From contig OY762940.1 in assembly GCA_963667255.1 (NCBI GenBank), forward strand, positions 1,120,001 to 1,184,000: a DNA stretch of 64,000 nt, in the 5' to 3' direction. A program made the translations under genes and the position numbers. Within the stretch, counting starts at the first letter, position 1. Each line of letters opens with the position of its first letter. Below are positions 286 through 22,774 of the stretch, in pieces. Under the pieces are notes generated by a model. It was not told the origin of the DNA. It did not search any database and saw nothing but the letters and a program-made list of their open reading frames with translations. Origin of the DNA: Candidatus Cloacimonadota bacterium (GTDB lineage Bacteria > Cloacimonadota > Cloacimonadia > G963667145).

Positions 286-1096
286 AATAAATGCTGACTT
301 GAAGAAGTTGGGCAGAGTTCCCACTTTGGCTGTGATTTTGGTTGATGGCGATGAAGCCTCTTCTATCTATTCCGAGAGCATCCAAAAAAAAAGTTGGGAA
401 TTGGGTATAAATTGCGAAATTGTTAAATTGCCTTCTTCCGTTTCTCAAAAAGAGTTGGAAGGTGTTCTTATCTCAGCTGGGAATGATAGCGAAATTGACG
501 GGATAATGATTCAGCGACCATTGCCAAAATCTATAAACATTGACTCCATTTGCTCGTATTTGCCGGCAGAGAAAGATGTTGAGGGAATTACCAACGAAAG
601 CTTGGGAAAAATTTTGTCAGGAGATAAAGCTCCCGAGCCTTGCACAGCCAAAGCGGTTTATGAAATTATCAAGCATTATGGGTTGTTGCAATTTGGCAGT
701 AAGATTGCGTTGATGGGCATTTCAACTTTGGTTGGCAAGCCTCTTCTCAATTTGCTGGCTTATCGTGGCGGAGTCGAGATAACGATGATTGACATCAATA
801 CTCCCAATCCTCAAAAATATACCAAGCAAGCAGATTTGCTGGTCGTAGCCATAGGTGACCCCGAGGCAGTGACTTCCGATTATCTCAAAGAAGGTGCTGT
901 GGTGATAGATGTGGGAATTAATCAGGTTTGCAAAAACGGCGAAGAAGTGGTGGTTGGCGATGTTGATTATGAAGATTGCTCACGGGTCGCTTCCGCTATC
1001 ACAGCAGTTCCCGGAGGAGTTGGCAGAGTTACCACTTTATGTATTTTCAAGAATCTTTTGTTTTTGTGTAACGAGAAGAAATTTTCGGTTTTGTAG
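239..1096 (+). CDS. folD: Methylenetetrahydrofolate dehydrogenase (FolD family, divergent)
   Basis: LAVILV, QRPLP, KDVEG, PCTAKAV, VGKPL, VIDVGIN, GDVD and VPGGVG motifs. Confidence 0.9.
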   Translation: MSKLKVISILHRLKTEINADLKKLGRVPTLAVILVDGDEASSIYSESIQKKSWELGINCEIVKLPSSVSQKELEGVLISAGNDSEIDGIMIQRPLPKSINIDSICSYLPAEKDVEGITNESLGKILSGDKAPEPCTAKAVYEIIKHYGLLQFGSKIALMGISTLVGKPLLNLLAYRGGVEITMIDINTPNPQKYTKQADLLVVAIGDPEAVTSDYLKEGAVVIDVGINQVCKNGEEVVVGDVDYEDCSRVASAITAVPGGVGRVTTLCIFKNLLFLCNEKKFSVL

Positions 1097-1105
1097 GTAA
1101 ATCAG

Positions 1106-2446
1106 ATGTCCGCTTATAAAAATGCTCTCGGAGACAGCAATATTAATAGAGCCCTTCTGAATATGTCGATACCAGCGATTGTGGGGATGAGTGTTGTTGC
1201 GACATACAGTATGGTGGATACGATTTTTGTCGGGCATTGCGTTGGACCGCGTGGCATTGCGGGCATTTTCATCGGATTCCCCTATCAAATTTTCATTATG
1301 TCCGTAGCGATGATGTTGGGAGTTGGGGGAGGTTCTATAATTTCCAGAGCCTTGGGAGAGGGCAACATAGACAAAGCATACACTACGCTGAGCACTGTTG
1401 GCATTGGGACTGTTGTCATCGGAGTGTTAATAACCTTAATCAGCTATTTGTTACTCCCTGTATTTTTGAAATTGTCTGGTGCAAAGGGGCTGGTATTTTA
1501 CCACGCCAAGCCATATTTTGCCGTAATGATTTTGGGCACTGTGTTTTTTATGATTTCCTTAGTTGCCAACTCTCTTTTGCGTGCTGAGGGGAAGAGCAAT
1601 GCAGCTATGTGGATACTGGTTATGGCAGCCGGAATGAATATCATCTTGGATTTTTTTCTGATATATTTGTTCAATATGGGAACATTCGGAGCGTCCTTGG
1701 CTACAGTGATAGCCGAAATAACTGCAGTTATTTATGTTGGATTTCACTTTTCCAAACACGGTAGCAGGATACATTTTGAGAAAATGATTTTCAAATGGGA
1801 AATTTTTAAGGAGACACTTGTTCTTGGGTTTTCCTCTTTTATAAATCAGGTAAGTTCCTCTATTTTGTTGGTTGTGCTCAATAACCGTTTGGCTGTTTAC
1901 GGTGGCGGAATTGCCATAGGAATTTTCAGTATTTATCATCGAATGGCAATGCTGATTTGTATGCCTGTTTACGGGCTCGCTCAAGGGATGCAACCTTTGG
2001 CTGGATATCACTTTGGTTCACGAACATTCGATAAGGTCAAAGAGGTTTTTCATAAGGCGACTTTTTGGGCAACGGTAGTCACGACATTGGGATTTGTGAT
2101 TTTGGTTTTTTTCCCGTCTTTTGTCATCAGTATTTTTACCAAGAATGTGGAAATTTTGCCCAAAGGCAGTCACGCTCTAATCCTGTTGAGTTTGGCTTAT
2201 CCTTTGGTAGGCTTCCAGATGATAGGCTCTATGGGGTTTATGGCTATTGGGAAATATCGCCCTGCTTTGATACTCAATACACTCAGACAATTGATTTTCC
2301 TGATTCCCTTTGTTTACCTGTTGGCTCCTTGGCTGGGATTGTTTGGTATTTGGATTTCGTTTCCCATCTCCGATGTTTTGGCTTTTATCGTTACACTTAT
2401 TTTGTATAGACGCTACATTCACAAATTGGAAAAAGAGTATAATTAA
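1106..2446 (+). CDS. MATE family efflux transporter (MepA-like)
   Basis: About 12 TM segments; YSMVDTIFVG, NIILDFFLI and GMQPLAGYHFG motifs. Confidence 0.9.
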   Translation: MSAYKNALGDSNINRALLNMSIPAIVGMSVVATYSMVDTIFVGHCVGPRGIAGIFIGFPYQIFIMSVAMMLGVGGGSIISRALGEGNIDKAYTTLSTVGIGTVVIGVLITLISYLLLPVFLKLSGAKGLVFYHAKPYFAVMILGTVFFMISLVANSLLRAEGKSNAAMWILVMAAGMNIILDFFLIYLFNMGTFGASLATVIAEITAVIYVGFHFSKHGSRIHFEKMIFKWEIFKETLVLGFSSFINQVSSSILLVVLNNRLAVYGGGIAIGIFSIYHRMAMLICMPVYGLAQGMQPLAGYHFGSRTFDKVKEVFHKATFWATVVTTLGFVILVFFPSFVISIFTKNVEILPKGSHALILLSLAYPLVGFQMIGSMGFMAIGKYRPALILNTLRQLIFLIPFVYLLAPWLGLFGIWISFPISDVLAFIVTLILYRRYIHKLEKEYN

Positions 2447-2448
2447 TT

Positions 2449-3183
2449 ATGAATTGTTATTTTATTTCGGACACACACCTCAAGCCTGTGCCTAAAAGCT
2501 CTGACGATAGAGAGCGACAAATTCGAGTTGTGAAATTTTTGGAAAAGATAACAGGAGAAGCCGATTATTTGATAATCGACGGAGACTTTTTCGATTTGTG
2601 GTATGATTGGTCTAATATCGTTCTTTCCGAATTTTTCCCCGTGTATTTTGCGTTAAGACAGTTGGCAAATTCAGGATGCAAAATCAAAATGTTGTCAGGG
2701 AATCACGATTTCTATTTTCGTTTTTTCTTGCAAAAATATCTTGATATAGAAATATTTGCGGACAGTTGTAGCTTGGAAATTGACAACAAGAGGGTTTTTG
2801 TAACTCATGGCGATTCTCATAGTCAAAACGATTTTAGATATAAGATTTATAAATACCTTATTCGTTCCAAAATTTTTGAGATATTTTTTGGCATTGTTCA
2901 TCCGGTTACAGCGATAAAAATCGGCTCTCTTGCTTCGAGAAGTTCTAGAAATAGAAAAACTGATACCAAAAAATTAGAAAGAAAAGAGAACGATTTTTTG
3001 CAATTTGCTGAAAACAAAATAAAAAACGAAAATTTTGATTTGGTTGTAATGGGGCACACTCACAATCCTATTTTAAAAAAAATAGAGAACGGTTTTTATG
3101 CCAATTGTGGAGATTGGCTTACACACAACTCATTTGTTCAGTTAAAAGACGGCAAAGTTTTTTTAGATAGGTTTGAGTTTTGA
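2449..3183 (+). CDS. UDP-2,3-diacylglucosamine diphosphatase (LpxH/YbbF-like metallophosphoesterase)
   Basis: ISDTHL, GDFFDLW, GNHD, THGD, MGHTH and NCGDW motifs. Confidence 0.8.
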   Translation: MNCYFISDTHLKPVPKSSDDRERQIRVVKFLEKITGEADYLIIDGDFFDLWYDWSNIVLSEFFPVYFALRQLANSGCKIKMLSGNHDFYFRFFLQKYLDIEIFADSCSLEIDNKRVFVTHGDSHSQNDFRYKIYKYLIRSKIFEIFFGIVHPVTAIKIGSLASRSSRNRKTDTKKLERKENDFLQFAENKIKNENFDLVVMGHTHNPILKKIENGFYANCGDWLTHNSFVQLKDGKVFLDRFEF

Positions 3184-3242
3184 TAAAAAGCAACGGGATA
3201 TTTGTAAAAGTGAGTAAATGAAATTAATAAAAGGGGATTATT

Positions 3243-4001
3243 GTGGCTAAGTATAATGTTTCTTCGTCGGTTGGAAAGGCTTTTCGTCTATTGGAGTGTA
3301 TAGCCGCCAATCAACCGATGACTGCACCCGAAGTTTCTCAAAAGTTAAAATTTAACAAGACTAATACTTACAGATTGTTATCGACTTTGAGTGAAATTGG
3401 CTATATTTATAAAGGAGACAGAGGATATAATTTAACATTTAAGCTTTTGTCTTTGGGCAGAACTGCTCCGGTGACCAAAGTTATCAAAAATATTGCCGAG
3501 CCTGTTATGGAAAAATTGATGAACTTGGTGCATGAAAATGTGTATCTTACAAGTATGATAGATACAAAGGTATTTGCAATTCATACTATTAGGTCGCCTG
3601 AACACCATCTTATGCTTAATCCCGAGAAAACTTCCGTTTTCCCTATCCATTCTTGTTCTTCAGGAAAATTATTTTTGGCATATTTGCCCAAAGATAAAAG
3701 GGGAAAAATAATGAGCAAATTAAAATTTGAGAAATTAACCGAAACCACTATCACAGACAAAGATAAATTTATTAAAGAGTTGGATAAATGTAAAAAGCAA
3801 GGATATGCTATCGAGAATAGAGAATTTTCGGATGAACTTATAAGCATTAGTGCTCCTATTTTTGGTGTAGAAGATGAAGTGTTGACTTGTTTGTCTGTTT
3901 CTGGTCCGAATATTAGGATTTCGCATGAATTTTTGGAAAGATACTCGGATGATGTTGTTAGATTTGCTGATGAGATTACCAATCATCTTCGTCTAAATTA
4001 A
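3243..4001 (+). CDS. IclR family transcriptional regulator
   Basis: N-terminal HTH (SVGKAFRLLE...TYRLLSTL); effector domain with HSCSSGKLFLA, GYAIENREF, ISAPIF, SVSGP. Confidence 0.9.
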   Translation: MAKYNVSSSVGKAFRLLECIAANQPMTAPEVSQKLKFNKTNTYRLLSTLSEIGYIYKGDRGYNLTFKLLSLGRTAPVTKVIKNIAEPVMEKLMNLVHENVYLTSMIDTKVFAIHTIRSPEHHLMLNPEKTSVFPIHSCSSGKLFLAYLPKDKRGKIMSKLKFEKLTETTITDKDKFIKELDKCKKQGYAIENREFSDELISISAPIFGVEDEVLTCLSVSGPNIRISHEFLERYSDDVVRFADEITNHLRLN

Positions 4002-4026
4002 TTTCTATAAAAAAGGAATATTGTTT

Positions 4027-12885: not shown

Positions 12886-14889
12886 CTAATTATCAAACCA
12901 AATCTTTTCTTGCTCGAATGCTTGAGCAAAAAGCATTTCATCGCCGAAAATAACGGTTGCTCCCTGCAGTTCTGATAGTTGTAGCATTGTTGTTTTTCTC
13001 GGCTGATAGACCATATCCATCACAACTTGTTCAGGTCTGAATTTTGCTACTAAACTTTTGTTTTCGTTCATTCCCACGCTGGTTGCGTTGATAACCACAT
13101 CAAAATTAACACAATTTTTTTCGGCTTCTTCGAGGGTGCAAGAGGTAAAATCGCCGATATTGGATAGCTCATCATTTTTTTGCAATGACCTTGCGGCTAT
13201 AGTGACCTTGGCGTTTTCTTTTAATAGCCCGAATAGAGCAGCTTTGGCAGCACCACCATTCCCGAGAAGCAAAACTTTCTTACCAGCAAGAGAACAATTA
13301 TAGGAGAGAGGTTTAATCGCTCCGATATAGTCGGTATTAAATCCGAGCAATTTCCCTTTTTCGTTTTTGAGGGTGTTGACGGCACCGATTTTTTGAGCGG
13401 TTTCATCCAATTTATTTAGTAAGGGCAAAACCTCTTGTTTAAAAGGCATTGTTATAGCCACACCTTTCCATCCATACGATTTGAAATTAGCCAAAAATTC
13501 TTCGAGTTCAGGTCCGCTGTCGATAGGGAAATTTACAAAACAGGCGTTGATTTGCTTGCTCAAGAATTGCTGATTGTGGTAGGCTCGAGAAAAGCTCTTC
13601 TCAATATTTTTGCCGATAAGCCCGTAAACACAGGTATTTTCGTTGGTGTTCAAGACTCCATACATATCGGTGAGAGTGCTCAAATCTATCTGTCCCGGAG
13701 CGACAGCTTTCCCAGTTGGTAAAAAAGAGTAGGTGAAAGGCGAGCCGTACTTTAGGGAAAGAATTCGCGAAAATTCCCCTTTGACTCCCATGCCGAAAGC
13801 AATAAGGTTGGGAAATTTCTTCAAGGCATTAAAGAGCAAAAAGTTGTCATTTATGTTGTTTATCAAAGTTGCAACTTTTAGGTAAGGAGTTCCCAAAATC
13901 TCCATTTTAGAGATGATTTCCACTATATTTTTAGGCGTCTCTGCAAAATTGTGATAAGATAAAACGATTTTTGAGTTCAATTCGCTGAAATCCAAATCTT
14001 TGCCCAAATCGTATTCAATATCGATAAATTCAAACCCAAGTTTGTCAATTTGCAAAATAGCTTTCTTGTATTCTTCTTCCGTAAGATTGGCTTTTCCGCC
14101 TTGTTTAACGGTTCTCAGGGTTGCTATAACGCCTCTTTTGTTCCAAGTGTCTAAATTATTGGGAATTTCGTTCAGATAGTCCAAGCGAAACTCCGCCAAA
14201 TAATGCAAACTCCTGATGTAATCTATCTCTTTTTTGGCATTTTGGACATCAGATTTGCTAACACAAACACAAATTTTTGGCAGGTAAACAGAGGAAAGAG
14301 GCTTTTTTCTTTTCGGTGTAATCTTTTTGCATAAAGCCAACAACTCATGAGCTTTTTCGCGTAGTTCCTGCAAAGAGCCGTAGTTTTCCACTATGTGGTT
14401 GCAATTTGTGATAAGAGCGTTGTTCTTTTGCGAGTTTATTCTAGAGAGAAGAGAGCTGTTTTTGATTTGCAGTCTCTGAATTTGCAAGTCCACAGAGGTT
14501 TCGACATTCACATCCAAGTCAAAACAATCGCTGATGTTGCGAGAAAAAACAGGCGGGATTTCCACGAAAATCAAATCTTCTTCTTGTTTCTTTATAATGT
14601 CTTCGATTGTTGCCAAAATCACGGGATGAGTAATCTCGTTTAGCTTATTTAGTTTTTCGCTATCCGAAAATGCTAACTTGCTCAAAGAATTTTTGTCTAT
14701 TTCGTTATCACAATTCAATATCGATTCGAAAAACTCTTTGACCAAATCGTCTTTGACCAGGGGTAAAATTTGGTGTCCGACTTCATCGGCATAAACTATT
14801 TTGCAGTCCAGTTCTTCCAAGAATTTGCAGAGCGACGACTTCCCGCAACCTATTGTTCCAGTGATGGCGACTAAGGTTTTTTGTTTCAT
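12886..14889 (-). CDS. coaE-aroD-aroE: Trifunctional fusion: dephospho-CoA kinase + type I 3-dehydroquinate dehydratase + shikimate dehydrogenase
   Basis: CoaE: ITGTIGCGKS, ADEVGH, LNEITHP. AroD: EFRLDYL, ATLR..QGG, DIE, SYHNF, KVA, MG..G.FSR, APGQ. AroE: YGLIG, TMPFK, GAVNT, NTDYIG, GNGGAA, NATSVGM, DMVY.P. Confidence 0.9.
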   Translation of the reverse strand: MKQKTLVAITGTIGCGKSSLCKFLEELDCKIVYADEVGHQILPLVKDDLVKEFFESILNCDNEIDKNSLSKLAFSDSEKLNKLNEITHPVILATIEDIIKKQEEDLIFVEIPPVFSRNISDCFDLDVNVETSVDLQIQRLQIKNSSLLSRINSQKNNALITNCNHIVENYGSLQELREKAHELLALCKKITPKRKKPLSSVYLPKICVCVSKSDVQNAKKEIDYIRSLHYLAEFRLDYLNEIPNNLDTWNKRGVIATLRTVKQGGKANLTEEEYKKAILQIDKLGFEFIDIEYDLGKDLDFSELNSKIVLSYHNFAETPKNIVEIISKMEILGTPYLKVATLINNINDNFLLFNALKKFPNLIAFGMGVKGEFSRILSLKYGSPFTYSFLPTGKAVAPGQIDLSTLTDMYGVLNTNENTCVYGLIGKNIEKSFSRAYHNQQFLSKQINACFVNFPIDSGPELEEFLANFKSYGWKGVAITMPFKQEVLPLLNKLDETAQKIGAVNTLKNEKGKLLGFNTDYIGAIKPLSYNCSLAGKKVLLLGNGGAAKAALFGLLKENAKVTIAARSLQKNDELSNIGDFTSCTLEEAEKNCVNFDVVINATSVGMNENKSLVAKFRPEQVVMDMVYQPRKTTMLQLSELQGATVIFGDEMLFAQAFEQEKIWFDN

Positions 14890-16954: not shown

Positions 16955-18415
16955 TTATTTATCAAATATTTTCGTCATTTCTCTATCGGGAGTTTTGCCT
17001 GACAAAGAAACAACAATAATTACAATGGAGGCGATAATAAATCCGGGCAATAATTCGTATAAATCAAAAAGACCACCGCTTAAATTTTTCCAAATGATGA
17101 TGGTCGCTCCTCCGCTTATCATTCCCCCAATGGCAGCATAGCGAGTCATTCTTTTCCAAAAGAGGCTAAATAAAAGCACCGGTCCGAAGGCTGCTCCAAA
17201 GCCTGCCCAAGCATAAGAAACTAAGCCGAGAACCGAAGAGTTTTGATTGGAAGCAATAATTCCCGCTAACACGGCAACGGCTACAACAGTAATTCTGCTG
17301 ACATAAACCAACTCTTTTTCGCTGACATCTCTTTTGGTAAAAAACTTGTAAAAATCTTCGGTAAAAGAAGAGGCTACTACGATGAGTTGAGAATCGGCGG
17401 TGCTCATCACGGCAGCAAGAATGGCAGCGAGCATTATTCCGGCAACAAGCGGATGGAAGAAAACTTCGATTAAGAGCATAAAAACTTTTTCGGAGTCGAA
17501 GCCCGCAGGAACGGCTGTAGAGTGAGTGTAAGCATAGCCGATAAGCCCTATCAAAGTGGCGGCTGCAAGACTGACAACAGTCCACGAAACTGCAATAACT
17601 CTGGCTGGACGGACATCTTCTTCTGATTTCAGCCCCATAAATCTGGTGAGAATATGCGGTTGCCCGAAATAGCCAAGCCCCCAAGCCATGGAAGATAAGA
17701 TTGTCAGTAGCGAAAGATTTTCTGAGGCTCCAAACTCTCTGAAAATCGATAAATGGTCGCTTATCAAAGAAAAATTGCTGGAAAATATTTTGTATCCAAA
17801 AATACAGACGAAGCAGATGGAAAACAGCATCAAGAGTCCTTGGAAAAAATCTGTCCAAGACACAGCCAAAAATCCGCCCAAAAAGGTATAGCTGATGATA
17901 ACCACTACGGAAATGAGCAGGGAGTAAATGTAGGGAATGCTGAAAACGGTGTTGAAAAGTTTGGCTCCGGCGACAAATCCCGAGGAGGTATAAATTACAA
18001 AAAAGATAATGATGAAAGCACCAGATAGGAAACGAAGAGTTTTGGATTTATCTTGAAATCTGACTTCCAAATATTCGGAAATTGTCAGAGAATCGTCGGC
18101 TGATTCGGTAAATCTACGAAGTCTTTTAGCAACGAATTTCCAGTTGCACCAAGTGCCGATAGCAAGACCTAAAGCCATCCAAAAAGCTCCGGCAAGTCCG
18201 AAAGCATAAGCTGCTCCGGGCAGTCCCATCAAAAGCCAACCGCTCATATCCGAAGCACAAGCCGACAGAGCTCCAACCCAAGGACCAAGCGACCTACCGC
18301 CCAAAACATAATCGGACAAACTTTCTGTTTTGCGATAAAAGTGCAAACCGATGAACAGCATAAACACGAAATACAAAGTAAAGGTCAAATAAATACTTCC
18401 GTTATTGACAAACAT
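16955..18415 (-). CDS. putP: Sodium/proline symporter
   Basis: DYVLGGR, ASDMSGWLLMGLPG, GYFGQPHIL, AAVMSTADSQL and LYELLPGF motifs; start moved to ATG 18415 after AAGGAG. Confidence 0.95.
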   Translation of the reverse strand: MFVNNGSIYLTFTLYFVFMLFIGLHFYRKTESLSDYVLGGRSLGPWVGALSACASDMSGWLLMGLPGAAYAFGLAGAFWMALGLAIGTWCNWKFVAKRLRRFTESADDSLTISEYLEVRFQDKSKTLRFLSGAFIIIFFVIYTSSGFVAGAKLFNTVFSIPYIYSLLISVVVIISYTFLGGFLAVSWTDFFQGLLMLFSICFVCIFGYKIFSSNFSLISDHLSIFREFGASENLSLLTILSSMAWGLGYFGQPHILTRFMGLKSEEDVRPARVIAVSWTVVSLAAATLIGLIGYAYTHSTAVPAGFDSEKVFMLLIEVFFHPLVAGIMLAAILAAVMSTADSQLIVVASSFTEDFYKFFTKRDVSEKELVYVSRITVVAVAVLAGIIASNQNSSVLGLVSYAWAGFGAAFGPVLLFSLFWKRMTRYAAIGGMISGGATIIIWKNLSGGLFDLYELLPGFIIASIVIIVVSLSGKTPDREMTKIFDK

Positions 18416-18605
18416 TAATTCACTCCTTATAAAAAACAAATTAGGATTCTCACAATGTGTAATAATCACGATAAGTCAGTATTTTGTAACTTATTTTATT
18501 GTCAAATCTAAAAAATTAATCTTTGTTCATTCTTTGAAAGGGGAAACGAGCCAAAAAAACTTCTTTTGTTATAAGGTTGTTAAGATAGCTACTTTTCCCA
18601 TCCAT

Positions 18606-18655
18606 CCTCATTCCAGCGAAAGCGGTAATCCAGTCGGGACAAGGTAGGGACATTA
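18606..18655. repeat. Degenerate palindromic REP/dRS3-like repeat (copy 1)
   Basis: cctcattccagcgaaagcggtaatccagt followed by cgggacaaggtagggacatta; similar to 61206-61256 and 61363-61389. Confidence 0.6.
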
Positions 18656-18721
18656 GCACTAGCTTCTTTATAAAAAACGAGTTAAGAACGGGCATGAGGA
18701 TTAGAGGAGCAGGGAACTTAA

Positions 18722-18964
18722 ACAACAATTCCGTCAGACCCCAATCAACTAAGGCTGGACAACGATTTGGCAAGGGGCTATGTGGATTATTTGGGGGATA
18801 ATAACCTTGATAGAACAGGGAAGAAGAAGGGCAATGATACGAGTATGGCAACGCCAAAGAGAGTGGCACAACCTACTGCTCAAACTCCTGTGCAAAACTT
18901 GGCTCCACAGCCAAAGCCCGAAGAAGAAGAGGAAACAGCAAGAGACGACACAAACGGATTTTGA
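18722..18964 (+). pseudogene. Probable orphan 3' gene remnant
   Basis: 80-codon open frame with no convincing start or RBS, ending in a P/Q/E-rich tail (PQPKPEEEEETARDDTNGF). Confidence 0.35.
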
Positions 18965-19079
18965 GAAAAGTCTTGACTTTCTCCTCGAAAAGAATGTTTT
19001 GGGTTTGTTTTAAAGGCAAAACTCTTGACAATTATCCTCACAATCGCCCATTGGATTGTAGTGGGCATAGGAGGAAACG

Positions 19080-19130
19080 ATGGCAAAGGAAAAGTCCTCT
19101 TGGTTGACCACGGTAAAACCACAAAATTGA
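19080..19130 (+). CDS. Candidate 16-aa leader ORF (MAKEKSSWLTTVKPQN)
   Basis: AGGAGG RBS just upstream of the ATG; hairpin gcccatt/agtgggc just upstream; stop abuts the RBS of the next gene. Confidence 0.35.
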   Translation: MAKEKSSWLTTVKPQN

Positions 19131-19143
19131 GGGGAAACACGAA

Positions 19144-19794
19144 ATGAAAGCTATCTTGATATCGCTTGTTGAGAGCATCTTTGCTAATCCTGCAAACTAT
19201 GGAATATTTCTTCTTTGTTGTATAGTTTTAACCGCTATTGTAACTATTAAGATTAAAGGGTTTTTGAATAAATGCAAAAATTCTAACAAAAAGTTTGGTA
19301 ATATAGATAAAAGCTTTGTTAATGTTAATGAAAAGATGGATTCTTTTGGTGGGAAGCTTGATGCTATAGGTGCAAGTTTGATGAATTTATGCACTGCATT
19401 ACACGAAAAAAAAGTGGTTGTAAAGAATTATACTCCCCAAGCTTTAATTCAGTCAAGTAGCCCCATTAATTTAACAGAAAACGGTATTAAATTTGTAGAA
19501 AAAAGCGGGGCTAAAACTGCTTATTTGTCTATGAAGCAAGAGTTAACCGATAAAGTCCTTAGCAATGCTCCTTACAAAAATTATTTAGACTTTGAACAAG
19601 CGTGTTTAAGGGCAATTGATAACACTCAAAGAGAAGAATTGAACGAGCCTAAAAACTACATATATGAAAATCCTGTTACTAATGGTATTGCTGTTACTAT
19701 CTATGACATTGTTAAAATGATAGGAATTATGCTCAGAAATGACATCTTAAAAGAACATAAAGATATTGTTACCAGTTCGTTAAAAAAGAAATAA
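19144..19794 (+). CDS. Hypothetical protein with N-terminal TM helix, coiled coil and SPxxLTxxG-containing C-terminal domain
   Basis: 216-aa ORF; hydrophobic segment at about aa 19-37; GAGGGG RBS. Confidence 0.75.
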   Translation: MKAILISLVESIFANPANYGIFLLCCIVLTAIVTIKIKGFLNKCKNSNKKFGNIDKSFVNVNEKMDSFGGKLDAIGASLMNLCTALHEKKVVVKNYTPQALIQSSSPINLTENGIKFVEKSGAKTAYLSMKQELTDKVLSNAPYKNYLDFEQACLRAIDNTQREELNEPKNYIYENPVTNGIAVTIYDIVKMIGIMLRNDILKEHKDIVTSSLKKK

Positions 19795-19808
19795 TTTTGG
19801 AGTAAGTT

Positions 19809-20282
19809 ATGGGAAAGAAAATTGATGCTGTAGCTATTGCTAAATGGTTTTTGTGCAATATTGATTTGGCAAGTGGAGATTTAATAACTCATTTAAAGTT
19901 GCAAAAATTAGTTTACTATGCTCAAGCGTGGTATTTGGCTCTCAACGACAAAGAGTTGTTTCCCGAAGAAATAGAAGCGTGGGCTCACGGTCCGGTTGTT
20001 CCTTGTATTTTCCAAGCATTTAAAGGGAATGGATTTGACCCTATTCCTTGCCCAAGTGATTGCCCTGTTTTCGATAAGGAAATAACCTCACATCTTAGCG
20101 AAATACTGGATGTCTATGGTATTTATGAAGCAAAATATTTGGAAAGATTAACTCATCAAGAAGCTCCTTGGCTGCTTGCAAGAGGGAATTTACCTATTGA
20201 GGTTTCTTCTCACAATATTATTTCCAAAGAGAGTATGAAAGATTTTTACAAAAAAATGAACGAAGAAAACAAGAGTGCATAG
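19809..20282 (+). CDS. Panacea-domain antitoxin (PanA/SocA/DUF4065/GepA)
   Basis: ITHLKLQKLVYYAQ, LF.EEIEAWAHGPVVP, LERLTHQEAPW and ISKESMKDFY motifs. Confidence 0.92.
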   Translation: MGKKIDAVAIAKWFLCNIDLASGDLITHLKLQKLVYYAQAWYLALNDKELFPEEIEAWAHGPVVPCIFQAFKGNGFDPIPCPSDCPVFDKEITSHLSEILDVYGIYEAKYLERLTHQEAPWLLARGNLPIEVSSHNIISKESMKDFYKKMNEENKSA

Positions 20283-20706
20283 GATAAATGCAAAGGTAAA
20301 TAACGAGAACAAAAAAGCCTTTTATGATACATCTATAAAACCAAAAGAAGATTTCCCCAATGTTAGCTTAAAATATTTTAATGATGGGTTTGAGTGTTTT
20401 AGTGAATGGGGAAAGAAAGAGTTAAAGGGGCTTACATCTTTTATAAAAAAACTAAGAAATTCGACTTGGCAAAAGATATTTAACTCTGGTGGCAAGTGTA
20501 GTAAAAACAGTAAGAATGGTTTTGCCTTAACTACTCACAAAGGCAGCAATATTATCAAGAGGCTTTCTGGGAAATTGGCTTATATAGAAAAAAAAGAAAT
20601 TATTTTTTTTGAACTTAGAACGAGTGGGAAAGCGAGAGTTCACGGATTTAAACAAGGGGAAACATTCTTTTTAATTCTTCTCGATAGAAATCACAAACTC
20701 TATTAA
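20275..20706 (+). CDS. Putative type II toxin, RelE/ParE-like (MAG6450-like family)
   Basis: Basic 143-aa ORF overlapping the antitoxin stop; C-terminal FELR..GKARVHGF....FFLILLD.NH. Confidence 0.65.
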   Translation: MHRINAKVNNENKKAFYDTSIKPKEDFPNVSLKYFNDGFECFSEWGKKELKGLTSFIKKLRNSTWQKIFNSGGKCSKNSKNGFALTTHKGSNIIKRLSGKLAYIEKKEIIFFELRTSGKARVHGFKQGETFFLILLDRNHKLY

Positions 20707-21428
20707 TAAATTCTTGTAAAAACAGTAATAGTATAGCCTCCTTTGTAGCCTTCTTTGGGAGGGAATACAGCTTTGGTAACAAGCCTGTCTTTCGATTGTT
20801 CAATGATGGGGTCGCAAATATCTCCATCGTAAACTAACATCTTTTCGCTATAAGAATATGGAACTCTGTATGGGTCTGTGGAAACTTGGCTTGTCCCATC
20901 TAAGTAAAATGCTTCTGTTTGATTTTTGTGATAGTCTTGACCTGTCTTGTAATGATTGTATAGGTCAAACTTAGTCTTCCAAGTCCCAACCATATAGTCA
21001 TCTTTATTCAGATAGCAGGTAGCCTTGATGTAGTATGTTCTCTCTAAATCGTCATACTTTTCTTTGGTTATTCTGTAAGCGAATTTGTCGCCTTTTCCTG
21101 CGAGCAGGAGATTGATTTCTTTTTCGATAAACGATGTAACTTTGCCGTTCTTTTCGGCATCGTAGGTGGTAACACTACCAGAGACCTCGACTCCTCTGTC
21201 GATGAGAGTCTTGCCAATGAGCATTCGCACTACTTTGTCGTAGGCTTCGTTCTTGGTTTCGCCCTCTTGCAAATGATAGGTGGCTTCTTGGACTGTCTCG
21301 TGGTAGATTGACTTCTGATATTTGAACTCTACTGGGTCTCTGAAATAGTAGTCTCTTGGGTGCCACATAGCAAGCAAAGAAGTGAATATGAGTGTGAGCA
21401 AGATGAGTAGAGATATTAGCTTTTTCAT
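20703..21428 (-). CDS. Secreted hypothetical protein
   Basis: Signal peptide MKKLISLLILLTLIFTSLLA; AGGAG RBS before ATG 21428. Confidence 0.75.
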   Translation of the reverse strand: MKKLISLLILLTLIFTSLLAMWHPRDYYFRDPVEFKYQKSIYHETVQEATYHLQEGETKNEAYDKVVRMLIGKTLIDRGVEVSGSVTTYDAEKNGKVTSFIEKEINLLLAGKGDKFAYRITKEKYDDLERTYYIKATCYLNKDDYMVGTWKTKFDLYNHYKTGQDYHKNQTEAFYLDGTSQVSTDPYRVPYSYSEKMLVYDGDICDPIIEQSKDRLVTKAVFPPKEGYKGGYTITVFTRIY

Positions 21429-21606
21429 TTTACTTGGTCTCCTTTTTTGATTTATTTGAGTTTTCGGGGCATAGGTTGTCAAGAAATTTTAATCTTGTTG
21501 TTTTTATGCAAAAATTCCTTCTTTCAAATAAAAGTTGTTGACACCTGACACGATTTAATAAGTTTCAAACAAAATTTTATAGATATGTTTAACGAAAGGG
21601 GTGTAA

Positions 21607-22317
21607 ATGAACTCATCGCAAATTTTGGCTAAAATGCAAGGTATAGATGATAAGATTAGCGATTTGCTTAAAAAGTCCGCACATCTGCCGGAACAGCTCA
21701 AAGGTCTGCAAGATAAGAAGAGCGAGACAGGAACGGCGTTGGATGAACTTGTTGAGCAAATAAAAAAGTGCAAGGAGTCGCAAAGCTTGTTGGAGCTGGA
21801 AGTGCAGACTAACAAGAACTTGGTCGAGAAATACAAAGAGCAACTTAACTCTATATCTAACAACAAGGAATACAAGGCTTTAAATAGTGAAATAACGCTA
21901 ATTAAAAGCAAAAATGTGCAACTTGATGAAAAAGAGCTCGGTTTGATGGAAGAAGAGAAGTTATTGAATGAGCAGAAGAGAGTTGCCGAAGAGAACAATA
22001 TATCTGCAAAAAAAGCTCTCGAAGAGGGTGAGGCTACTATCAAGGTGCAGATTGACGAAGTGAACAAGCAGATAGAAGCTGAAAAGTCCGAGAGGAATGC
22101 ACTTGCCGGAAAATTGCCGACCTCCCTTGTAAAACAATATGTTCTCTTGATAAAGAAGAAGAATCGTAAAGCTGTTGCTTTTGCTTATAAAGACGCTTGC
22201 AGTGAATGTGGCTTTCGTTTGCGTCCACAATTGCTCTTGGAGCTTGATACTTGCAGTGAGCCGAAAGTGTGTGAGAATTGTGGCAGGTTTTTGATTAAAT
22301 TGGAAGAAAATAAATAA
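21607..22317 (+). CDS. Coiled-coil C4-type zinc-ribbon protein (DUF164/CT398-like)
   Basis: Long coiled coil with NNKEYKAL..EI; CSEC and CENCGRFL; lies upstream of rnpB. Confidence 0.9.
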   Translation: MNSSQILAKMQGIDDKISDLLKKSAHLPEQLKGLQDKKSETGTALDELVEQIKKCKESQSLLELEVQTNKNLVEKYKEQLNSISNNKEYKALNSEITLIKSKNVQLDEKELGLMEEEKLLNEQKRVAEENNISAKKALEEGEATIKVQIDEVNKQIEAEKSERNALAGKLPTSLVKQYVLLIKKKNRKAVAFAYKDACSECGFRLRPQLLLELDTCSEPKVCENCGRFLIKLEENK

Positions 22318-22330
22318 AGATATATTTTTG

Positions 22331-22750
22331 AGGAGAGGATAACATCTCTGCCGAAGTCGATTTTGTTGGCTTCGAAGGAAAGTCCGAACACCGCAGAGCA
22401 GATTGCTTCTTAATACGGAAGTCTTGGCAACAAGGAATAATCCAACAGAAAGATACTCCAAGCACCTATTTTAGCTTTCAAATTTGTAGAAAATAGGTAT
22501 ATTAAAAAGGCTAAAATAGGTGCTTGATAAGGTGAAATGGTGGTGTAAGAGATCACCGGCACGGAGCGTGAGCCTCGTGGACAGGGAGTTTCAATCGGTG
22601 CAATGCCAAATAGGGGACTGATAGGTTGCTCGCCTTGCTAAGGTCTCGGGTAGGCAGCAAGAGTCGGTTAGTGATAATCGACCGAGATAAATAGAGATAG
22701 TTTGGCTGTTTAGTAGGTCAAAGACAGAATTCGGCTTAATATCTTCTCCT
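22331..22750 (+). ncRNA. rnpB: RNase P RNA (bacterial type A-like)
   Basis: GAAGGAAAGTCCGAA and ACAGAATTCGGCTTA form P4; CAACAGAAAG, AAGGTGAAATGGTGGTGTAAGAG and GGGTAGG elements; terminal P1 aggagaggat/atcttctcct. Confidence 0.95.
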
Positions 22751-22774
22751 TAAAATAATCAAAAGAATGTTGTT

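Follow-up and report, generated by a model that had tools for sequence, protein, structure and literature searches.

Do the three closely spaced genes at 19144-20706 of the window (the whole 64,000-nt stretch of DNA analysed here) encode a toxin–antitoxin system with a membrane-anchored third component, or a two-gene module lying beside a gene that acts on its own? The original prediction proposed the former: a Panacea antitoxin and a RelE-like toxin, controlled by the product of the first gene in an architecture not described before. The host genome is a single contig of 1.59 Mb, and the part of it that bears on this question contains the following features:

18521-21501, no strand assigned: insertion of about 2.98 kb, between putP and a zinc-ribbon gene
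18605-18640, plus strand: REP-like hairpin repeat, in a degenerate copy towards the insertion's left end
19069-19130, plus strand: tuf-like start, a ribosome-binding site and first codons resembling those of tuf-like genes
19144-19794, plus strand: gene 1, ORF of 216 aa
19809-20282, plus strand: gene 2 (panA), ORF of 157 aa
20275-20706, plus strand: gene 3 (panT), ORF of 143 aa with a GTG start
20703-21428, minus strand: gene 4, 241 aa, with a signal-peptide-like N-terminus and a genome-like G+C content of 40%

The names putP and REP-like are those that we assume from reading the sequence, and the name tuf (EF-Tu) for the likeness at 19069-19130 is presumed from the N-terminal sequence. Genes 1 to 3 had been described as close-packed, AT-rich and on the same strand. 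Their coordinates and motifs, the 14-nt gap between genes 1 and 2 (with a GGAG ribosome-binding motif inside), the 8-nt overlap of genes 2 and 3 and the low G+C content were all confirmed. The G+C content is 31%, 36.5% and 32% for genes 1, 2 and 3, respectively, versus 39.3% for the genome, which ranks them at the 8th, 19th and 10th percentile among 1445 long ORFs (spurious ones included). It had also been claimed that no terminator is visible between the genes; for genes 1 and 2 this held, the gap being free of terminator-like sites in a promoter and terminator scan. The scan gave three terminator-like matches (two of them within genes 1 and 2) versus 1.7 ± 1.6 in shuffled sequence, and 10 promoter-like matches versus 9.7. 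Both counts are at chance level, so that a shared transcript of genes 1 to 3 is, from the sequence, only plausible. Positions 17500-22500 were found on a single contig with zero differences in three of the four sequencing runs compared; these runs come from one study and are possibly the assembly's own source, so that the agreement demonstrates self-consistency of the assembly only.

Two things were absent from the earlier description: the convergent gene 4 and the insertion that spans the whole block. The gene block is flanked by housekeeping genes, and putP and the zinc-ribbon gene are joined directly in all five same-genus genomes. The alignment to the closest relative (G001) stops at 18520 and restarts at 21502, and this genome has about 152 nt at the site instead of 2.98 kb. 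The view that genes 2 and 3 lie on accessory DNA was thereby upheld, as all of genes 1 to 3 are in an insertion that is missing at this site from five of five same-genus genomes. The insertion consists of the REP-like hairpin (a motif with 14 copies genome-wide, the one at 18605-18640 included), genes 1 to 3 and gene 4. Integrases, transposases and target-site duplications were looked for in the insertion and its surroundings and none was seen, and an RNA-family search gave no match inside the insertion. Elsewhere in the window, a class A RNase P RNA lies at 22332-22753, and a 667-aa ORF at 12886-14889 (minus strand) reads as an apparent fusion of dephospho-CoA kinase, type I dehydroquinase and shikimate dehydrogenase.

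Gene 4 is convergent to gene 3 and overlaps it by 4 nt. It matched no Pfam, NCBIfam or PADLOC family, and no full-length match was present in the 231 other genomes of the phylum, in which two weak partial matches were seen (E about 8e-4). Gene 4 belongs to the insertion and not to the toxin–antitoxin pair. At the other end of the block, the sequence at 19069-19130 is identical to two tuf-like starts of the genome at 25 of 26 and 24 of 25 nt (blastn E 7e-4 and 2e-3). It opens a 16-codon ORF (19080-19130) that ends 13 nt 5' of gene 1. This tuf-like start may be a chance likeness or captured sequence.

Gene 2 had been read as a Panacea antitoxin, and the assignment is secured by a match to PF13274 (Panacea/DUF4065) of 63.2 bits, over the cut-off of 25.7. 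The 157-aa protein (pI 5.3) is a stand-alone Panacea, with no extra N-terminal domain, and is 36-55% identical to 58 Panacea proteins sited 5' of gene-3 relatives. We rejected an assignment to SocAB, a type VI toxin–antitoxin system: gene 2 scored 68 bits against the SocA equivalog NF047745, far under the cut-off of 190, and its partner is a MAG6450-family protein, not SocB.

Gene 3 encodes a basic protein (pI 10) that matched NCBIfam family MAG6450 (NF046006) with 42.6 bits, over the cut-off of 40. The name 'MAG6450' occurs in two Mycoplasma papers of the open-access literature. Within the phylum the family exceeds its cut-off in one of 232 genomes, the host genome; three weak matches in the phylum all adjoin Panacea, and all are without gene 1. 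Gene 3 had been called RelE-like, yet it has no RelE/ParE match in Pfam, and the description stands by virtue of the family assignment and the fold predicted by the model. This model (pLDDT 82) predicts a RelE/BECR fold, with a helix packed on a four-stranded antiparallel sheet. It aligned with RelE 2khe over 84 residues (VIA Z 7.8, rmsd 2.5), and all but one of the 15 best VIA rows (Z 5.7-7.8) were toxins of the RelE/HigB/YoeB/YafQ type. Foldseek placed RelE 1wmi on top (probability 0.99, E 0.019), with nearly all other rows belonging to the RelE superfamily. The scores are modest, with Z under 8 and no Foldseek row at E<=0.001.

In a sequence alignment (not a superposition) of 120 gene-3 relatives, R115, R121 and H123 are present in all 120 and H140 in 119. 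Residues 41-142 match the C-terminal part of PADLOC NsnC (E 2.4e-7), and this match is common to 119 of the 120 relatives. NsnC's C-terminal domain is described as a YafQ-like BECR RNase whose triad is H-R-H (PMC12065111, which, like PMC8832971 and PMC10440598, is cited throughout from the parts accessible to us). The RelE/ParE fold also covers gyrase inhibitors (PMC10440598). From the model, gene 3 is predicted to be a ribonuclease toxin.

To see how gene 3 is placed elsewhere, we collected 90 loci with relatives of it, comprising 10 viral loci and the best 80 of 93 metagenomic ones, and dropped 16 duplicates. Among the 74 distinct relatives that remained, Panacea lies directly 5' in 68; in the other six, the contig ends within 100 nt upstream. 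The Panacea–MAG6450 pair is thus strictly coupled, in the order antitoxin–toxin, across many unrelated contigs that are without gene 1. A locus search of the viral contigs with gene 3 alone gave no match. On two of the viral contigs (L083 and L085), as well as in locus L143, pairs sit directly 3' of genes that we take, from their sequence, to be endolysin-like; for the two viral contigs this is a typical site of phage cargo. A co-oriented upstream ORF is present in 33 pair loci, at a distance of more than 50 nt in 31 of them versus 14 nt here. This gap is unusually tight, and the pair may therefore depend on the promoter of gene 1 at the present locus.

The pair itself turned out to be known. 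The database search with gene 3 returned 192 matches (itself included), and one homologue, WP_133014904.1 (E 7.9e-22), is assigned to toxin cluster T1 by Kurata et al. 2022 (PMC8832971, Dataset S1). The Panacea–MAG6450 pair has therefore already been catalogued, as PanA with PanT cluster T1, and the architecture cannot be called undescribed as far as the pair is concerned. The pair of Mycoplasma agalactiae is likewise listed under T1 (PMC8832971), and NetFlax (Ernits et al. 2023, PMC10440598) has the T1 pair of C. cadaveris as 'Panacea : D3'. For node D3, the RelE fold or the link to NsnC may already be on record in the dataset of the latter paper. T1 is among the commonest Panacea partners, with about 217 of 1268 rows, a number inferred from where T2 starts (PMC8832971). 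In the accessible part of the same paper, Table 1 describes none of its ten pairs as RelE-like and holds no validated T1 pair.

Three T1 toxins have been tested in Escherichia coli (PMC8832971; outcomes as labelled in the Fig. 1 legend, from 12 of the 13 'toxic' entries). One was toxic and was not rescued by PanA, and two were non-toxic. Neutralisation is thus unproven across cluster T1. These outcomes lend some weight to a different reading of the pair, as a conditional anti-phage or proteolysis-type module in which PanA is a sensor or a protease adaptor like SocA, or in which the toxin stays latent until a trigger arrives, with gene 1 unrelated in either case. The gene-3 family resembles the Menshen effector domain, 10 of its members are on viral contigs, and SocA is a Panacea protein that serves as a protease adaptor (PMC8832971). 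However, validated PanA proteins neutralise without ClpXP or Lon, and stable antitoxin–toxin complexes were obtained for five other PanAT pairs (PMC8832971); gene 2 is far under the SocA equivalog cut-off, and the E. coli outcomes may reflect the foreign host. We consider such a module unlikely.

We turn to gene 1, for which the original prediction gave one transmembrane helix, a coiled coil and a soluble domain of no named family. This description was supported in each part. The protein has a single hydrophobic stretch at about residues 19-40, with a Kyte-Doolittle peak of 2.36 (19-residue window). In the model (pLDDT 92), a continuous helix spans residues 16-88 and is followed by five helices; the long helix is predicted to form a coiled coil, and the helical domain of about 110 aa opens with S-P-x-x-L-T-x-x-G. 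No match was obtained among the Pfam, NCBIfam, PADLOC and PHROG families, nor by Foldseek against PDB and BFVD at E<=0.001, nor by tblastn against 50,697 annotated phage records. The VIA rows for gene 1 span residues 14-91 (the long helix) only, so the C-terminal domain was barely probed by them. The Atlas gave 30 unnamed clusters (best 0.93) with a recognition of 2042, under the 2300 mark and hence weak; the nearest named cluster, at 0.88, is a lead only. A profile of the family matched influenza HA2 chains in PDB with up to 33 bits (E 3e-7). We rejected this likeness as a coincidence of helical pattern, because two weak stretches (9.9 and 22.0 bits) add up to the score and no HA2 is among the fold matches listed.

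An unindexed search of 50%-identity representatives yielded 75 relatives of gene 1 at E<=0.001, with 22-37% identity. A word-indexed homologue search returned only gene 1 itself when started from the single sequence and only four proteins when started from the alignment. The N-terminal hydrophobic stretch is present in 55 of 70 aligned members, S106, P107 and R198 are invariant, and no Pfam or NCBIfam family is common to more than two of the 70. The family has solitary members in Patescibacteria and Bacteroidota, among other groups, as well as on phage contigs. Gene 1 is therefore a member of a widespread unnamed family that is usually solitary. Two relatives of about 280 aa (L181:1189-2031 and L182:398-1228) have an extra C-terminal part and lie, together with NUDIX and TIM-barrel genes, in conserved gene strings of Patescibacteria; shorter relatives in L178 and L179 lie in similar strings. 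An identical relative is found on two viral contigs (L033 and L035:2773-3324), 5' of ORFs that we presume, from their sequence, to be GroEL-like and small-terminase-like.

Whether gene 1 is linked to the pair was addressed from both sides. Gene-1 loci were drawn from a search of the phylum, from profile-confirmed motif scans and from profile searches of 401 + 401 genomes, of which 12 and 6, respectively, contained a match. The phylum profile gave 17 genome hits, of which 14, all in other genomes and with matches to the N-terminal helix only (E>=2.5e-5), were dropped. Candidates from the motif scans were kept at profile E<1e-8, which left 2 of the 8 viral ones and 16 of the 45 genomic ones (6 and 29 dropped). 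After removal of five duplicates, 34 distinct loci outside the host genome remained, in 31-33 clusters; 33 have at least 600 nt downstream and 17 have only about 1.5 kb of flank. One motif and a profile were used to draw these loci, which cover only part of a diverse family. Panacea or MAG6450 was the adjacent gene in none of the 34, as judged by profiles on all ORFs, and a Pfam search of their 117 nearest neighbours likewise placed neither of them next to a gene-1 relative. Conversely, none of the 43 Panacea–MAG6450 loci with at least 800 nt upstream contained a match to the gene-1 profile. The corresponding one-sided 95% upper bounds are 6.7% (0/43; 17-34 sequence clusters) and 8.4% (0/34; 31-33 clusters), both somewhat optimistic because kin are not independent. 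The genes 5' of the 43 pairs are mutually unrelated, save for near-duplicates and one pair of transposase-like ORFs. The neighbours of gene-1 relatives are mixed, with housekeeping genes in many of the 34 loci; by raw count, 11 of the 34 lie on a phage contig or have a gene for IS1595, an integrase, a DNA methylase, Fic, Mu-F or Panacea nearby.

One gene-1 locus of the 34 has Panacea within 3 kb. This is L069, a Kaiserbacteria contig on which positions 530-4019 hold two Panacea genes and two gene-1 relatives in tandem, along with an unassigned ORF of 162 aa, the Panacea genes being 0.7 and 1.5 kb 5' of the tandem copies. Both gene-1 copies and the gene that comes next are each preceded by a promoter-like repeat containing a TATACT hexamer, and the whole looks like an array of separate accessory genes. 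Three other genomes contain both a gene-1 relative and Panacea, 245 kb apart in the same-genus genome G005 and on different contigs in G232 and G236. In G005 the closest relative of gene 1 (35%) is solitary, beside hrcA (Pfam-supported) and with a hairpin of its own behind it. The Panacea gene of G005 is partnered by a 115-aa protein whose C-terminal half is hydrophobic, as in membrane PanT toxins. One 300-bp repeat (86-88% identical) flanks both this pair and the solo gene-1 relative (L004:1474-2315 and L036:3438-3753), which also have a palindromic repeat in common. The separation by 245 kb and the common flanking repeat indicate that, in the host genus, both kinds of gene arrive as separate cargo.

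These results bear directly on the proposal of a membrane sensor or third component. We took it as a lineage-specific three-part system, in which gene 1, as membrane tether or sensor, would hold the PanA–toxin complex or set it free, for example upon phage-induced membrane stress. The 14-nt gap, the common strand, the low G+C content of all three genes within one insertion and the presence of both families in the L069 array are consistent with it, and Panacea has been hypothesised to be a sensor domain (PMC10440598). However, all of this comes down to adjacency, and co-occurrence was 0/43 and 0/34, and a single example of the arrangement is known. The gene-1 copies of L069 have promoter-like repeats of their own and lie 3' of different Panacea genes. 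Moreover, third genes beside PanAT pairs are confined to small fractions of genomes and were judged to have no general role, in the accessible part of PMC8832971. With homologues of gene 1 not enriched beside Panacea in the loci compared, an outcome that the original prediction had itself named as refuting it, and solitary in other genomes, we regard the proposal as very improbable. The same very low probability attaches to its mechanistic form, a newly formed module in which membrane-anchored gene 1 would tether or gate the antitoxin and a membrane signal such as phage DNA injection would release a Menshen-like RNase. A role for gene 1 as a second toxin, one that acts on the membrane and is neutralised by the PanA of the pair (toxin–antitoxin–toxin), is scarcely credible: several of the PanT toxins that have been validated are membrane proteins, and one has a coiled coil, and a toxin-first order exists (PMC8832971), but 33 of the 34 gene-1 loci have no conserved partner and often lie between housekeeping genes, something not possible for a toxin in need of an antitoxin.

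We conclude that the pair is, with high probability, a horizontally acquired Panacea–T1 pair, likely a two-protein type II system, and that gene 1 likely travels in the same 3-kb insertion as a passenger independent of the pair. The solitary state of the gene-1 family in other genomes suggests that gene 1 is a chance neighbour in a recent insertion. In such a pair, the toxin, with its predicted RelE/BECR fold and its invariant Arg and His, would cleave RNA, mRNA at or close to the ribosome being the most likely target, and translation would stop. By analogy with other stand-alone PanA proteins, the acidic gene 2 product would bind the basic toxin and keep it inactive. Loss or displacement of PanA, for example through phage infection or loss of the DNA, would then free the RNase, and the role of the pair might be phage defence or retention of the inserted DNA. 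Gene 1 would act without the pair, as a membrane anchor carrying a coiled-coil stalk and a head, both probably cytoplasmic because basic residues follow the helix. It is probably co-transcribed with the pair, for no other reason than that the latter came to lie 14 nt behind it. Our best, weakly supported guess is that gene 1, by itself, provides an accessory function typical of mobile DNA, phage exclusion being one example.

The outcome is modest: a further Panacea–T1 pair, together with a clear negative result for the third component that had been proposed. It may have some use beyond this locus. The predicted RelE/BECR fold of T1/MAG6450 and the likeness to Menshen single out R115, R121, H123 and H140 as specific residues and provide a phage-defence rationale. 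Gene 1 belongs to a large family of membrane-anchored proteins that has no name and for which we found no curated profile and no solved fold. If it were true that gene 1 controls the pair, it would supply the activating cue that has been proposed for Panacea domains.

Finally, we compared the locus with known systems. A third close-spaced gene beside a toxin–antitoxin pair is also found in mazEFG, in toxin–antitoxin–chaperone systems, in paaR-paaA-parE and among the PanAT 'accessory proteins'. The first three are defined by a third gene that is conserved across genomes, whereas gene 1 is not. The accessory rows of PanAT (about 50 of the 63 in PMC8832971) are mostly enzymes, transposases and integrases, and were compared with gene 1 by description only. 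No three-gene Panacea system with a membrane protein was found in the open-access literature, and genes 1, 2 and 4 had no PADLOC match. Through the profile match described above, gene 3 is like the C-terminal effector of Menshen NsnC (PB-BECR1; PMC12065111). Unlike Menshen, the locus has no NsnA (ParB-DUF262), no NsnB (ABC ATPase) and no inactive-PIN domain, and matches NsnC only in part. Gene 3 is like RelE, YoeB, YafQ and HigB in its predicted fold and in being basic with Arg and His residues conserved in the C-terminal strands. It is unlike RelE/ParE toxins in its low identity to them (7-15%), in being about 50 residues longer, in an invariant C-x-x-E-W motif and in having a Panacea partner in place of RelB, YefM or HigA.

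As to PanAT itself, the T1 rows carry no domain prediction in the accessible part of PMC8832971, whereas the model of gene 3 gives a RelE/BECR fold. Dataset S1 of that paper, in the part accessible to us, covers two Cloacimonadota genomes and lists no PanA for them. The present locus differs from T1 in the tightly spaced membrane-protein gene 5' of the pair, which was not seen in the 43 other loci. It is like T1 (PMC8832971, PMC10440598) in having a stand-alone Panacea gene directly 5' of a MAG6450-family gene, with the antitoxin first and an 8-nt overlap, and in being patchy, horizontally spread and present on phage contigs as well.
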